Below, one piece after another: positions 36,001 to 42,000 of a DNA stretch of 64,000 nucleotides. The position numbers are program-made. The first letter of the stretch is position 1; every line of letters begins with the position of its first letter. Source of the stretch: Candidatus Latescibacterota bacterium (lineage in GTDB: Bacteria; Latescibacterota; UBA2968; UBA8231); the NCBI GenBank assembly GCA_965219385.1, contig CBDCNM010000002.1:2040936-2104935 (forward strand). The letters are read 5' to 3'.

Positions 36001-39000
36001 AAGCGTGATAGGCATCACGCGCCATTTGCGGTTTACACCACCATGTCAAGCGCTATCGCTGTAATCATTGGTCCTGTCGGCTGGCTCGGCGCAGGGCTAT
36101 TCGCAATTTGGAAACTCACCGACGCGAATTACAAGCGGCTGATTCCTGCAATCCTCTACGTGTCGGCACTACGGGCAAAACAACAGGGCAATTTTTCCTG
36201 ACGGCCATATAACCCACTGCTGTTTTCAAAGGAAGCACAACAACAGGAAGGCGGCTTAACCGTAGTGTCACATAATTATTGTGAAAATTTGTCACCTATT
36301 ATTGTGAGAATCCGGTAGATAGGGAATTCGGATATGGCGATCTCTGCGTCGATTACGTCCTCGCCGATGGGCACTGATCCGTTGCTGGGTCTTCTTGGCT
36401 TCGGCATCATTGCTGGTGTCTAGATAGTGTGAACCAGGACGCGACCTACATGCGCCGGGCCCTGCGCCAGGCTCAGAAAGGCCGGGGCCATGTCAGTCCC
36501 AATCCGCTGGTTGGGGCCGTGATCGTGCGCCATGGTCGCATTGTGGGAGAGGGCGCCCATCGGCGCGCAGGGGGGCCGCACGCCGAGGTGCACGCCCTTG
36601 CCCGGGCCGGCGACCAGGCTCGAGGCGCCGACCTTTACGTGACTCTGGAGCCCTGTTCGCACCACGGCCGCACCCCACCCTGCAGCGAAGCCGTCATCGG
36701 CGCCGGCATCAAACGCGTGGTCTGCGCTCTGCCAGACCCGGATTCCCGGGTGAGTGGATCGGGGCTGCAGCAGCTCCGGGATGCCGGTATAGAGGTAGAA
36801 GTCGGTCTGCTCCAGGCCGAGGCCCAACGCCAGAACGCGGCCTACCTCAAGCACCGGCAAAAGGGCCTGCCCCTGGTCATCCTGAAACTGGCTCAGACCC
36901 TGGATGGACAGATCGCCACGCACGCGGCCGACTCCCGCTGGATCACCGGCCCCAAGGCCCGCGGGCACGCCCATCGCTGGCGCGGCTGGGTTGACGGCAT
37001 CATGGTGGGCGCCGGCACCATTGCGGCCGACGACCCGCAGCTGAACGTGCGCCATGTGAAGGGCCGCGACCCGCGGCCCCTAGTAGTGGACGGCCGCCTC
37101 CGGGTATCTCCCGGCGCTCGAGTGTTCCAGCGTTCGGGCGCGGTGTTGATTACAGGGGCCGGCCATGCGCCCGCGGCCCTGACCCCCTTCGTAGATAGAG
37201 GGGTCGAGATCTGGACCTACGAGGCCCCACAGGGGCGCATTGATCTGCGCCAACCCCTGAAGGCGGCGGCCGAACAGGGAATGACGAGCATCGTGATCGA
37301 AGGCGGCGGCCAGCTGGCGGCTTCCGCCCTGCGGGACCGCGTTGTGGATCAGGTGATGATCTTTGTGGCTCCGCGAATTCTCGGTCGGGGTATTGCGGGA
37401 ATCGGCGACCTCGGTATCATAAGAATAGAAGACGCGATTGCCCTCGAAGAGGTGCAAACCCGACGTCTGGATATGGATCTACTCTACACGGCCAGGGTGA
37501 AGTACCCGTGTTCACTGGATTGATCGAAGAAGTCGGCCAGGTGCGCCGGCTGAGCCGGGAGGGCTCGTTTCAGCGCCTGATCATTGGCGCCCGGCGGGTG
37601 CTGGCCGATCTGCGCCTGGGAGACAGCGTCAACATCGACGGAGCCTGTCAGACCGTCGTGGACCTGGCAGCGGACAGCTTTGCGGTGGAATCCGTCGAGG
37701 AAACCCTGGAGCGCACCACCCTGGGCGAACTGCAGGTCGGCCGTCCCGTGAATCTGGAGCGCTCCCTGCGCCCCCAGGACCGCCTGGGCGGGCACCTCGT
37801 CCTGGGACACGTCGACGGGGTCGGCAGGATCAGCCGGCTGGAGCAACGCCAGCAAAACTGGATCCTGGCCATCGAGCCGCCGGCCGTTGTGGAACCCTAT
37901 ATCGCATCCAAGGGATCTATTGCCCTGGACGGCATCAGCCTCACCGTGGTAGAGGTCGGGACCGGGGACTTTACGGTGAGCGTGATTCCCCATACATTTG
38001 ACTTTACCACCCTGGCCCGGCGGCGGGTCGGAGACCGGGTCAACCTGGAGGTGGATATCATCGCCCGCTACGTGGAACGCCTCCTGACGGCGGACCGCGC
38101 TCCCGACCAGGGATTGACCGTGGAAAAACTGCGGGAAATGGGCTATTGAAGCGTTTCTATTATGCCTGATTTCAATACCATAGACGAAATCATAGAAAAC
38201 CTGCAAAACGGCGAGATGGTGGTGCTGGTCGACGAACGGGACCTGGACGTGGACGGCGCCGAACGGGTCGGCGAAGGCGAATTGATGATGCTGGCCGAAC
38301 GGGTGACGTCCGAATCCATCAATTTTATGGTGCGCCATGCCGGCGGCCCGCTCAACGTGCCCGCCGACCAGCAAAGGATCGAGACCCTCGGTCTGGAGAG
38401 GATGCCCGGAGGCCGGGCCCCCCGAGGGGCTTCCGTCATGGTCTCGGTAAACGCCACCCCCATCGAAGGCACCGGCGTTTCGGCCCACGATCGCGCCCTG
38501 ACCATCCGCCGGCTGGCCGACCCCCACAGCAGCGCGGAGAACTTCGTCCAGCCCGGACACGTGACCCCGCTTCAGGCGCGAACCGGCGGCGTGCTGAAAA
38601 GGGCCGGTCACACCGAGGCCGCGGTGGACCTGGCGCGCCTGGCCGGATGCCAGCCCGTCAGTCTCATCTCGGCCATCCTCGACCACAGCGGCGAAGTGGC
38701 TTCCACCCCTTACCTGCTGGACTTTGCCCGCAAGCACGGGTTCAAAATCGCCACCATCAAAGACCTGATCGCCTATCGCCGCCGCACCGAAAAATTGATC
38801 GCGCTCGAGACCCGGGCCGTCATGCCCACGCGCCATGGCCAATTCACGGTCTACGCCTACCGCAGCCTGGTGGACGACAACCCCTATATCGCCCTGGTCA
38901 TGGGCGATGTCAGCGACGGGAGGGACACCCTGGTGCGCATGCACTCCGGCTGCCTGACCGGCGATGTCCTGGGCTCCTACCTGTGCGACTGCGGCGAGCA

Positions 39001-42000
39001 GCTCGAACGCGCCCTGGAAATGATCGCCGCCGAGGGCAGGGGCGTGATCGTCTACATCCAGCACCACGAGGGCCGCGGCATTGGCATCTTCCACAAGCTC
39101 AAGGCCTACGAACTCCAGCAACGCGAGGGGCTGGACACCGTAGAAGCCAACCACGCCCTGGGGCTACCCATGGATCCGCGCGACTACGGCATCGGCGCTC
39201 AGGTGCTCTACGATCTAGGGGTGCGAAGGGTGCGCTCGCTGACCAATAACCCCCAAAAGAGGGTAGGGCTGGAAGCCTACGGGCTCAAGCTGGTGGAACA
39301 GGTGCCGATCGCCGCCTCGCCGAATCCCCACAACATCGAATACCTGCGCACCAAACAGGACAAGATGGGACACACCACCCTGCTGGGAGCGCAAGAGGCG
39401 TCCAGCGAGCCGCCCGGCAGAGGAGATCGAGATAATGCCCAGAGTGTATGAAGGAAAACTTGCGGCCCAAGGCAAGAAATTCGGGATTGTGGTCAGCCGT
39501 TTCAACGACTTGGTGACCACCAGGCTTCTCGAAGGAGCCCTGGACTGTCTGAAGCGCCACGGCGCGGAGGAGGAGGACATCGAGATCGCCTGGGTGCCGG
39601 GCTCCTTCGAGTTGCCCCTGGCGGCTCAGAAGATGGCGGCCGCCGGACGCTTTGCCGTGGTCATCTGCCTGGGGGCCATCGTCCGCAGTTCCACCCCGCA
39701 TTTCGACTTTGTCGCCAGCGAGGCCGCCAAGGGCATTGCCCGGGTAGGGTTGGACAGCGGCATCCCTGTGACCTTTGGGGTCATCACCGCGGATACCGTG
39801 GAGCAGGCCATCGAGCGGGCCGGAGTCCGGGCCGGCAACCGCGGCTGGGACGCCGCGCTCAATGCGATCGAAATGGCCACCTTGATGGACGAGCTTTCCT
39901 GAAATGTCGGCACGGAATTTCGCGGCGGACTTCGAAGAAGACCCGGAGTCGTACCAGCCGCCGCCGAACAATCGCCGCGGCGCCCGCCAGGTAGCCCTGC
40001 AGGCACTCTACTGGGATGCCAGCTCGCCGGGCACGGCTGCGGTGGCCGTGCGGGAACTAATCCGGCGCTTCGCGCTTTCAGAAGAGGTCGGCGCCTTTGC
40101 CACCGCGCTGGTCCACACCGTCGGCGAGCACGGCCGCGAACTGGAGGAGTTGATCGCGGCCAACGCCACCCATTGGAAGCAGGACCGCATCGCCCGGATC
40201 GACGGGATCATCCTGCGCCTGGCTCTGGCCGAAGTCCTCTTCTTGGTAGGGATTCCGGTGCGGGTATCTATCGACGAAGCCATTGAACTGGCCAAGCTCT
40301 ACAGCACCGAACAGTCCTATGGTTTCATCAACGGCATCCTGGACGCCATCGTGCACCAGAGGGGACTGCCTGTATAAAAAGGGCTCATGTCCACAGCCAT
40401 ACTCTCAGACATTCACGCCAACCTCGAAGCCCTGGATGGCGTCTGTCGAGCCGGCGATGAACGCCGCGTCGATGCCTGGATATGTCTGGGAGACATCGTC
40501 GGTTATGGCGCCGATCCGGGGGCCTGTCTCACGCGGACCCGCGCCCTGACCGATCAGGTCGTGCTGGGCAACCACGACGCCGCCGCCACCGAGCTGCTGG
40601 ACCTGGCCTATTTTAACGAGTACGCCGCCGCCGCCGCGGTGTGGACGGCCGACCGGTTGGCGCCGGAAGAGCGGGCTTATCTGGCAAACCTGCCTTTGAC
40701 CATAGAAAGTGAGCGCGCCTTTTACGTCCACGCCGAACCGCGCGACCCTGGAAGCTGGGGTTACGTGCACTCCCGCAGCGATGCGCGGGCCGCATTTGCC
40801 GCAGTGCCCACCCAGCTTTGTTTCATCGGCCATTCACACCAGCCCTTTATGTGCGGCCATAACGACGCCGAAATAGAGCTTATCACGGGACCGGGACCTT
40901 TGGAAATAGAGGAAGGGCGACGTTACCTGGTGAACGTAGGCAGCGTCGGGCAACCCCGGGACGGAGACGCCCGCGCCTGTTTCCTGATCTGGGAAGAGGA
41001 AACCGGAACTCTGGAACTAGTCCGCGCCGAGTACGACATACCCACGGCCCAGAAGAAGATCATCGCCGCGGGCCTGCCGGCCTTTCTGGCCGAACGCCTG
41101 GCGTTTGGTCATTAAAATACCGAGGAACCGTCATGTTTGGTGCATTGGGGAAAAAAATATTCGGCTCTCAGGCGGAACGCGAATTTAAAAAGATCGTTCC
41201 CCAAATTCGGGAAATCAATCGCTTCGCCGCCGATTTCCAGGCCCTGAGCGCAGAGCAACTGCAGGGCAAGACCGCACAGTTCAAGGCCCTGCTGCAGGAG
41301 CGGACCAGGGTTCAGCAAGAACAACTGAGTCAGATCGAAGAGCAACTCCGCGGCGACCTGGAACCAGAGGAACGCGAATACTCCAACGACGAACTGGAGC
41401 GCCTGGACCAGGAAATCCGCGACCTCGAGGCCGGGGTCCTGGACGAGATCGCCCCCCAGGCCTTCGCCTTGGTCAAGGAGGCCTGTAGCCGCCTGCTCGG
41501 TCAACAGTGGGAGGTCGTCGGCACCACCGAGGAGTGGTACATGTTGCCCTACGACGTCCAGCTCTTCGGCGCCCTCGTCTTGCACCAGGGCAAGATTGCC
41601 GAAATGGCCACCGGAGAGGGCAAGACCCTGGTGGCCACCATGCCGCTCTACCTCAACGCCCTGGCCGGCCGCGGCGTCCACCTGATCACCCACAACAACT
41701 ACCTGGCCAAGCGCGACGCCATGTGGATGGGGCCGATCTACAATTACCTGGGCCTGTCCGTGGGGGTCATCCAGGACGCCCGCCAGACCGGCGGTGCCGA
41801 GGCCTACCTGCTGCCCGCGCCCGCCGCCGTGCCGCGGGAATACCTCTGGGAGGAGGCCACCCTCCAGCAGGCCTATGGGGCCGATATCGTCTACGTCACC
41901 AACGACCAGGTCGGCTTCCATTACCTGTACGACAACATGGCCACGCGGCGCGAAGACATCATGCAGCGCGAATTCAACTACGCCATTGTCGACGAGGCCG

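Follow-up and report, generated by a model that had tools for sequence, protein, structure and literature searches.

To our knowledge, RibB is regarded as the sole source of riboflavin's four-carbon unit, 3,4-dihydroxy-2-butanone 4-phosphate (hereafter DHBP), and its metal site as invariant. The catalytic metal has two protein ligands, one of them E38 (PMC9305975), and phosphate is bound by R37 (PMC12268802). V. cholerae Asn92 (E. coli position 91) faces the substrate phosphate in simulations (PMC5228156). Fused proteins with one altered but retained half have been described. In Arabidopsis RIBA3, essential residues of the RibB half were lost clade-wide but GTP cyclohydrolase II (GCH II) was left intact, and plants retain RIBA1 and RIBA2 for DHBP (PMC3509567). 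RibBX of Proteobacteria (A. baumannii, PDB 6mnz) is the mirror case by alignment, with a GCH II half without zinc cysteines and a canonical RibB half. Small changes can also divert RibB chemistry to DXP: E. coli RibB G108S and D113G, each a lone substitution that leaves the metal site intact, rescue a dxs deletion, with DXP up about 20-fold (PMC3424233). No report of a RibB altered as described below was found in the literature covered, of which subscription journals were largely not a part.

The window analysed here was a stretch of 64,000 nucleotides from one Ca. Latescibacterota genome (G000), in which the gene order was ribD-ribE-ribBA-ribH-nusB. Features were as follows.

36429..37523, + strand, ribD, deaminase/reductase (TIGR00326, 337 bits, cut-off 156)
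37508..38149, + strand, ribE, riboflavin synthase (TIGR00187, above cut-off)
38162..39451, + strand, ribBA, 429 aa, remodelled RibB domain followed by GCH II
38162..38791, + strand, remodelled RibB domain, aa 1-210, RibB fold predicted intact
38231..38281, + strand, loop 1, D24-E40, with the 7-residue insertion, a predicted beta-hairpin; R37 and E38 scored as lost, D42->E, new fixed charges E25, R26 and E34 (alignment, AlphaFold2)
38354..38356, + strand, N65, at the E. coli C67 position (alignment)
38420..38431, + strand, loop 2, PRGA; R88 lies at E. coli position 91 (R in 105 of 109 homologues)
38600..38617, + strand, R147..G-H150-T151-E152, equivalent to E. coli R150, H153, T154 and E155; phosphate site and second metal ligand (61/61)
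38672..38674, + strand, A171, at the E. coli E174 position (alignment)
38936..38992, + strand, GCH II zinc motif, three cysteines retained, E53->G and R64->L (TIGR00505, 225 bits)
39435..39902, + strand, ribH, lumazine synthase; F23, H89 and R128 retained (profile and alignment)
39687..39689 and 39840..39842, + strand, lineage-specific S85 and R136 of ribH
39904..40377, + strand, nusB, conserved operon neighbour (TIGR01951, above cut-off)

Fold, domain order and operon position were those of M. tuberculosis RibA2 (a RibBA; PDB 4i14) and of the RibB proteins of E. coli (1g57) and V. cholerae (7uf1/4p8e). The RibB domain was modelled by AlphaFold2 with a pLDDT of 88.9 and matched solved RibB structures in Foldseek (E 1e-23, TM about 0.85); ESM Atlas matches were RibB clusters only. 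Its score against the RibB equivalog TIGR00506 (168.8 bits) was below the cut-off of 177.45.

RibB domains from all 61 genomes of the family (f1) were aligned to E. coli RibB from RefSeq as reference. The survey's finding that the equivalents of D42, C67 and E174 had been lost family-wide was borne out in 61/61 domains: the D42 position was E in 48, V in 10, M in two and A in one; C67 was retained in none; and the E174 position was A in 40, S in 15, T in five, D in one and never E. In the canonical comparison sequences (n = 63), E38, D42, C67 and E174 were each 100% conserved. Metal and phosphate residues had also been described as kept, which held for R150, H153 and T154 (61/61) but not for E38 and R37, both lost in 61/61. 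The E38 position was V or I with the loop registered on GEG, and V in the insertion-less members, where the alignment was gap-free. The R37 column, scored as lost throughout the family, held R in 6 of 109 further homologues, G000 being among those with R. H153 and E40 were present in 61/61 family domains and 109/109 further homologues. Of the motifs recorded in the survey, the GH motif was present in G000 (H136) but not invariant (56/61 in the family, 87/109 further homologues), the acidic-loop insertion was found in 49/61 genomes and was absent from 12 genomes of one genus, and GPRGA was the family consensus, G000 itself reading RAPRGA.

In common with canonical RibBA and RibB, the G000-type domain retained its fold, R150, H153, T154, E155, E40, the T107-D113 lid (present in G000; T107 in 52/61 and D or E at 113 in 61/61 of the family) and, in its partner, the GCH II zinc and catalytic residues. 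It differed in the replacement of R37, E38, D42, C67, T93 and E174, in seven additional loop 1 residues, in the PRGA of loop 2, in E100->N and F138->T, and in GCH II E53->G and R64->L. T93 was T in 89/92 stand-alone RibB proteins. New charges were fixed in the family, as also seen in the 109 further homologues (E25 in 107, R26 in 106, E or D34 in 105, E40 in 104, R88 in 105), of which 107 had E100->N. F138->T was common to f1 and a second Latescibacterota family (f10) and was found in 0/148 representatives. R at position 91 was considered as a convergence with f10 and is weak as such, since R or K occurred in 17/148 representatives. One clade of five homologues without E42 carried aspartate at the E174 position, and in genus g13 the loss of E42 went together with that of R88.

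The remainder of the pathway was intact. RibE F2-T3-G4, C47, H101, S144 and T146 were present in 61/61 genomes, as were the GCH II CX2GX7CXC zinc motif, R49, H51, R94, K101, Y105 and R128; GCH II scored above its cut-off (206) and carried E53->G/C/A/S and R64->L in 61/61. Lumazine synthase carried G84->S/T in 60/60 and K135->R in 59/60, in B. subtilis numbering. nusB adjoined the rib operon in 54/54 f1 loci, and no extra operon gene was found in these or in 11 f10 loci.

A single PF00926 match in G000 was confirmed, also by an unfiltered six-frame HMM scan, and canonical RibB was indeed absent from this genome and from 25 others of the family. An assembly gap hiding canonical ribB was ruled out, as the G000 aroA-dsbD site was closed by about 136 bp; no stand-alone ribB remnant was found at the dsbD locus in any of 10 other genomes checked. 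A distant RibB-fold substitute was likewise ruled out, G000 having one Sua5/YrdC gene and no second HMM match. Because the G000 pathway is intact and canonical DHBP synthase is absent, either the domain is active or the four-carbon unit has another source. The survey had posed the choice as another four-carbon source or new chemistry; its premise was real, but that the domain may still make DHBP had been overlooked.

The 26/61 genomes without canonical DHBP synthase might instead import riboflavin, with the operon as a remnant or serving a different route, to a pterin or deazaflavin. Vitamin salvage does occur in G000, as a thiamine ECF component shows, but RibH and RibE, whose steps come only after DHBP, had intact key residues and evolved at normal relative rates in the genomes without a stand-alone RibB (backup). 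Searches of two transporter families gave no PnuC/RibM match and no RibU-type match above cut-off; no FMN riboswitch, which might have pointed to a substitute, was found in 61 family genomes; and F420 as the reason for retaining RibA and RibD was ruled out, as no CofG was found above cut-off. Import was considered highly improbable.

On the family tree, about 15 losses of a near-canonical stand-alone RibB were counted, and residues of the altered pocket decayed mainly where it survived. E42, the insertion, T107 and H136 were all intact in 24/26 genomes without a backup (exceptions T107S in G055 and H136V in G016) versus 10/31 with one. Losses of pocket consensus residues on backup-positive versus backup-negative branches were 48:19, versus 115:91 in the remainder of the domain (terminal branches only, 30:11 versus 65:65; branch-permutation p 0.004-0.04). 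With the three literature-defined sites alone the ratio was 10:2 (p 0.07-0.14), and no difference in whole-domain constraint was seen between the branch classes (p 0.43). Backup-less genomes lay mostly within one large clade, and the heaviest pocket decay was one event. This pattern of decay favours a domain that still makes DHBP. The family ancestor would also have carried a near-canonical stand-alone RibB, which lineages with an intact pocket would have dropped repeatedly and lineages with a decayed pocket retained as a backup.

The divergence rate of the RibB domain relative to its GCH II partner was 2.0, compared with 0.83-0.99 for canonical lineages, as expected of relaxed selection; the ratio was still 1.64 in backup-less genomes. 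This doubled rate, and the presence of R..GHTE in RibB domains that have decayed elsewhere, make a pseudoenzyme the main rival. It would be retained to support the dimer structure or to sense ligands with the phosphate pocket, in a RibBA that acts as GCH II only while a non-homologous enzyme makes DHBP. R150, T154 and E155 were retained in 8/8 representatives lacking at least two of E38, D42 and E174, two of these being the family's own clusters. In family f6 a plainly dead domain (D42->E, E174->G) beside a canonical stand-alone RibB likewise kept GH and R..GHTE. Because these decayed domains keep the same residues and f6 also shows D42->E, both the presence of R..GHTE and the exchange of carboxylates may have structural grounds. 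Five classical active-site residues, including the metal ligand E38, were lost together, and the new arginines and acids could lock the loops through salt bridges, for which the joint loss of E42 and R88 in g13 is as expected. RIBA3 is an assayed precedent (PMC3509567), although G000 differs from those plants in having no second RibB, and the family differs from that setting in fixing new charged residues and in a pocket conservation that tracks absence of the backup, which a pseudoenzyme does not predict. In f10, 11/11 genomes had one altered RibB copy, with a more variable pocket, and would likewise need a DHBP source. On whether the f1 and f10 changes arose independently, gene trees disagreed: a grouping of f1 with its class-mates had an AU p of 0.11, and f1+f10 a support of 46. 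Against a non-homologous source stand the lack of a candidate gene in the f1 or f10 operons and, in G000, the single Sua5/YrdC protein and the absence of a RuBisCO-like protein and of LuxS. A pseudoenzyme was judged possible, if rather doubtful.

Our favoured explanation, a tentative one that could well be wrong, is that the RibB domain works as a DHBP synthase whose active site has been rebuilt, and that it is the DHBP source in genomes like G000. Ribulose 5-phosphate would still be held through the phosphate group, the place of R37 being taken by R88 (loop 2) or R26. One Mg or Mn would be bound by H153 and a candidate loop 1 carboxylate, E34 or E25, in place of E38, and E42, with its longer side chain, would fill the E174 space as the sole floor carboxylate. 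Metal-driven tautomerisation, dehydration, 1,2-shift and formate loss could then proceed, probably slowly. That much of RibB chemistry has been ascribed to the Lewis acidity of one metal (PMC9305975) counts for such an enzyme; that mutation of E38 abolished activity in two species (PMC5228156) counts against it.

The domain could alternatively take the 2,3-diketone phospho-DPD from another enzyme and carry out no more than the 1,2-shift and the loss of formate that yield DHBP. The mechanism of Liao 2002 is said to assign E174, C67, H136, E100 and F138 to enolisation and C1 dehydration. These are the positions lost or freed here (E100->N, F138->T), whereas the domain still has the phosphate site and a single floor carboxylate. 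It has F138->T in common with f10, and these lineages also show lumazine synthase changes close to the phosphate site of that enzyme. The 2,3-diketone has been observed as an intermediate (PMC9305975), and an LsrF-type thiolase scored above the NCBIfam cut-off in G000. The second half of the reaction, however, also requires E38, and a source of the diketone was not found: the LuxS/Lsr route was ruled out, LuxS and LsrG not being found and matches to LsrK being only generic kinase ones at 29%. An LsrF-like thiolase with a zinc dehydrogenase was rejected as a family-wide route to DXP or DHBP (9/45 family genomes, 0/17 in f3, 0/11 in f10). This half-reaction was considered unlikely. Equally improbable is the supply of phospho-DPD by an undescribed pentose-phosphate dehydration route that would also feed DXP to the DXS-less MEP pathway; the diketone pool could then be reduced to DXP, indirectly joining both gaps. 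With the half-reaction counted in, a RibB domain that makes DHBP was judged marginally probable.

Absence of DXS from the lineage, also noted in the survey, was real: dxs was above cut-off in 3/61 genomes, G000 not among them, and dxr was present in 57/61. Both ispG and ispH are present in G000, where no HMG-CoA reductase was found. The proposal that the domain turns ribulose 5-phosphate into DXP or a direct precursor, replacing DXS, was not supported, because dxs-less relatives have canonical RibB and f10, with its altered domain, has dxs (9/11). The dxs-less relatives were families f3 (dxs in 2/17) and f4 (0/2), both with high-scoring RibB, canonical in the six read. The 12 genomes with a decayed pocket lacked dxs and retained dxr, the genus with the most decayed pocket had dxs in 0/16 and dxr in 16/16, and the three dxs-positive genomes had intact pockets. 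The family also differs from the DXP-making E. coli variants in having neither G108S nor D113G (G108 in 61/61, D or E at 113), and DHBP would be left unexplained. A direct DXP role is thus very unlikely. An MTA-isoprenoid shunt was ruled out, a RuBisCO-like protein being absent from G000. Since Rhodothermus marinus likewise has all MEP genes but dxs, with its DXP source unknown and no altered RibB reported in the passages covered (PMC11730185), the DXS gap stands apart as an open problem already known.

Both leading readings contradict the picture of RibB as the sole source with an invariant metal site. If the half-reaction and its proposed supply route were true, one shared intermediate would be the branch point for making riboflavin and isoprenoids, and an altered enzyme of this kind would also occur in f10. 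A dead domain would mean an unknown DHBP synthase in 11 f10 genomes and in no fewer than 26 of this family. If the domain is active, it would carry out the same skeletal rearrangement without four of the accepted catalytic residues and, as a natural site-swap experiment, would test how much of the chemistry is due to the metal alone.

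The RibB domain under study lies in RibBA, encoded in the ribD-ribE-ribBA-ribH-nusB operon.

38162-39451, + strand, RibBA, open reading frame of 429 residues

Residues were numbered after E. coli RibB and RibA (RefSeq), and one RibBA was found by PF00926 search in each of the 61 sampled genomes of the family (f1), all 61 sequences being read. In the protein from the window's genome (G000), the GCH II half passed the TIGR00505 cut-off (225 bits, cut-off 206) and the RibB half scored under that of TIGR00506 (168.8 bits, cut-off 177.45). The losses reported in the survey's finding were seen family-wide: position 42 was E in 48, V in 10, M in 2 and A in 1 of the 61 RibBA domains, and none retained C67 or E174. 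Every one of 63 canonical RibB sequences, taken from Dehalococcoidia, other families of Latescibacterota and a single unlabelled record, had E38, D42, C67 and E174. The catalytic roles of C67, E174 and E100 are said to go back to work by Liao and by Fischer, both of 2002. Because several residues that define RibB were absent, the G000 protein is not classed as canonical and is, on its sequence, a new variant of RibBA.

The metal and phosphate residues had been taken as kept, and here the earlier description required correction. The position of E38 is V or I in family RibBA, that of R37 is not conserved, and H136 is present in 56/61 family members and 87/109 further homologues. The loss of R37 and E38 was directly visible in 12 members that align without gaps; these lack the 7-residue loop insertion, which was confirmed in the other 49 of 61 and is therefore not universal. 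The single metal of V. cholerae RibB is held by Glu39 and His154 (PMC9305975), equal to E. coli E38 and H153 with a numbering offset of one, and a fungal RibB structure is described with metal bound by the equivalents of E38 and H153 and the phosphorus group by arginines equal to R37 and R150 (PMC12268802).

Conservation was counted in 109 family-type homologues out of 120 hits and is given in G000 numbering. E38 (E. coli E40), R147, H150 and E152 were each present in 109/109, T151 in 108, E25 and N97 in 107, R26 in 106, R88 and an E or D at position 34 in 105, and E40 (the position of E. coli D42) in 104; in one clade of five sequences E40 was replaced by alanine and an aspartate stood at the E174 position, a single event on the tree. 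R88 corresponds to E. coli position 91, where V. cholerae Asn92 touches the substrate phosphate in simulations (PMC5228156). AlphaFold2 gave a confident RibB fold for the domain (pLDDT 88.9), in which the insertion forms a short hairpin predicted less confidently, and Foldseek aligned it with solved RibB at a TM of about 0.85. The variant made up only two clusters among 1.84 billion representatives, the next hits lying well apart.

Tentatively, we favour a DHBP synthase whose active site is rebuilt and whose substrate is ribulose 5-phosphate. By way of compensation, the phosphate would be gripped by R150, H153, T154 and a new arginine, a single metal would sit on H153 and a loop-1 carboxylate, and E42 (the glutamate at E. 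coli position 42) would serve as lone floor acid. Metal Lewis acidity is described as a primary driver of the tautomerisations, hydration and eliminations (PMC9305975), and RibB turnover as slow in any case (PMC13151069); PMC10366380 and PMC10964609 were used as background only.

Nearly as likely as the rebuilt synthase, and equally to be held with reserve, is a dead RibB domain in organisms with an unrecognised DHBP enzyme. The domain has diverged 2.02 times as much as the GCH II half of the protein; in canonical groups this ratio is 0.83-0.99. In family f6 (2 genomes), loop 1 of RibBA is broken and the domain shows D42->E together with E174->G; a canonical stand-alone RibB is present too, and the RibBA still retains GH and R..GHTE. 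Of 150 representatives, 8 (two being the f1 clusters) lack two or more of E38, D42 and E174; R150, T154 and E155 were retained in 8/8 of these and H153 in 7/8. Since R..GHTE persists in decayed RibB domains, its retention is no evidence of catalysis. Arabidopsis RIBA3 is likewise a RibBA, reported from assay to have a dead RibB half (PMC3509567), and counts for the dead-domain reading. Each of the 11 genomes of family f10 carried one altered RibB copy, with an acid at position 38 kept and R37, C67 and E174 lost. f10 is another Latescibacterota family in which the only RibB domain is altered, its GCH II being canonical and dxs present; the copies (loci L213-L223) have R/K at position 91 in 9/11, a GAS lid and F138->T/S/M.

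As had been stated, G000 has no other RibB: Pfam and an unfiltered six-frame HMM scan each gave the single match. Of the 61 family genomes, 31 carry a complete stand-alone RibB and 4 a partial one, and in 26 none was found, a weak match in one genome (G050) being left out of the count. Of the complete copies 26/31 were aligned, and residues were counted in 92 homologues. R37, E38, E40, D42 and H136 were present in 92/92 and T93, R150 and E174 in 89/92. The stand-alone protein is probably a working synthase, because the canonical residues are retained and C67 alone is missing; that position is H, L or M in 92/92, and the loop reads TPRFG. The gene immediately follows aroA or an enolase-superfamily gene and is itself followed by a dsbD-like gene, for example:

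L080:6068-6697, stand-alone RibB

No remnant was found in the G000 aroA-dsbD interval of about 136 bp. In 10/10 other genomes checked that lack this backup, the dsbD locus was assembled without it, and the usual upstream gene abuts dsbD in 8 of the 10. Dollo counting on the tree gave 15 losses.

In favour of a domain that still works, E42, the insertion, T107 and H136 were all intact in 24/26 backup-less genomes versus 10/31 backup-carrying genomes. The backup-less exceptions were H136V (G016) and T107S (G055), the latter a change reported to inactivate M. jannaschii RibB (PMC5228156). Losses of consensus residues were then assigned to branches of a tree of the four remaining rib proteins. Over the RibB domain as a whole, the branch classes did not differ (159:108, reference 472:361, p 0.43). 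Pocket segments, defined as the published loops plus the strands bearing C67, H136 and E174 and chosen after the all-intact pattern had been seen, gave 48:19 losses on backup-positive:backup-negative branches, with 115:91 elsewhere in the domain (Fisher p 0.02, or 0.006 when the 12 insertion-less genomes are left out). Terminal branches only gave 30:11 versus 65:65, branch-label permutation gave p 0.038, 0.031 and 0.004 at three thresholds, and the three literature-fixed sites alone gave 10:2 (p 0.07-0.14). Pocket decay tracks the presence of the backup, a signal of moderate strength that is partly clade-level. The simplest reading is redundancy: DHBP formation is a job that the two RibB-family proteins share, and one of them has to carry it out. 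A half-reaction enzyme using the 2,3-diketone is unlikely.

The pathway gap is real, as proposed: G000 has no canonical DHBP synthase, and the motif residues of RibE and RibH are intact, with rates relative to GCH II near canonical-lineage values. The key lumazine synthase residues are named as F22, H88 and R127 (PMC12871164). That de novo riboflavin synthesis is absent altogether is highly improbable. The search for riboflavin uptake covered PnuC-type and ECF transporters only: no PnuC-type transporter was found, the single weak ECF hit was a thiamine transporter, and no FMN riboswitch was found among the 61 family genomes; CofG gave no match over cut-off. The thiamine ECF component is of ThiT type (L247:1420-1962, on G000 contig C1), and E. 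coli thiL and thiI had no match in G000.

GCH II retained its three zinc cysteines, R49, H51, R94, K101, Y105 and R128 across the family, with E53->G/C/A/S and R64->L in 61/61; variation at position 53 is seen in canonical relatives as well. In lumazine synthase, the phosphate-loop glycine is S or T in 60/60 f1 sequences and G in 28/28 canonical ones, and the GNKG lysine is arginine in 59/60 f1, 11/11 f10 and 2/2 f6 sequences and K in 27/28 canonical ones. The lumazine synthase changes may reflect ancestry, not co-adaptation, because f6 has canonical RibB and because f1, f10 and f6 group together in the RibH tree. In Dehalococcoidia loci (L187-L212), GCH II has DLRHY in place of the DxRDY of the other sequences, and the RAGTKAGNKG loop is missing from lumazine synthase. 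A metallophosphoesterase behind nusB (window 40387-41115), found in the G000 operon and 16/54 family loci, is a possible candidate for the pyrimidine phosphatase step. Between ftsY and ribD (window 33250-36420) lies a low-GC insert (0.46-0.55, versus about 0.63). One small ORF in it (33713-34231) reads as a Ras/Roc-like GTPase, three others have no Pfam match, and two more (35537-36064, 35818-36201) look like a frameshifted pair; 43/54 relatives have a 675-residue gene upstream of ribD in its place.

A tie between the RibB change and DXS loss did not hold. Over cut-off, dxs was found in 3/61 and dxr in 57/61 family genomes; G000 has ispG and ispH, and HMG-CoA reductase was not found there. Among 121 phylum genomes, dxs was present in 2/17 of f3, 0/2 of f4, 29/29 of f2 and 9/11 of f10. 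RibB sequences were read from 49/76 non-family genomes: the f3 (four) and f4 (two) copies among them were canonical, four of the six coming from genomes without dxs, and the f3 copies left unread matched at E 1e-87 or better. f10 has altered RibB together with dxs. The E. coli RibB variants G108S and D113G are reported to yield DXP in vivo (PMC3424233; PMC8791446; PMC8227265). In family RibBA G108 is invariant and position 113 is D or E, and the genus with the decayed pocket has dxr in 16/16 and dxs in 0/16. The RibB and dxs gaps are therefore uncoupled, and it is very unlikely that the domain makes DXP.

About 60 genomes of one class (f1, f3, f4) carry dxr without dxs, a gap like that of Rhodothermus marinus, whose DXS-less MEP pathway is described as lacking a known DXP source (PMC11730185). 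G000 has many aldo-keto reductases, and three pairs of E1 alpha/beta type, as candidate sources. A thiolase of LsrF type that scores above the NCBIfam cut-off (L251:3689-5574, G000 C2:2484689-2486574), translationally coupled to a zinc dehydrogenase and without LuxS or LsrG found alongside in G000, could in principle run in reverse and, with a reduction, give DXP; it occurs in 9/23 backup-less family genomes versus 0/22 with stand-alone RibB.

No description of the variant RibBA was found in the open literature. Either a rebuilt synthase or a dead domain, if true, would be surprising to a flavin enzymologist.
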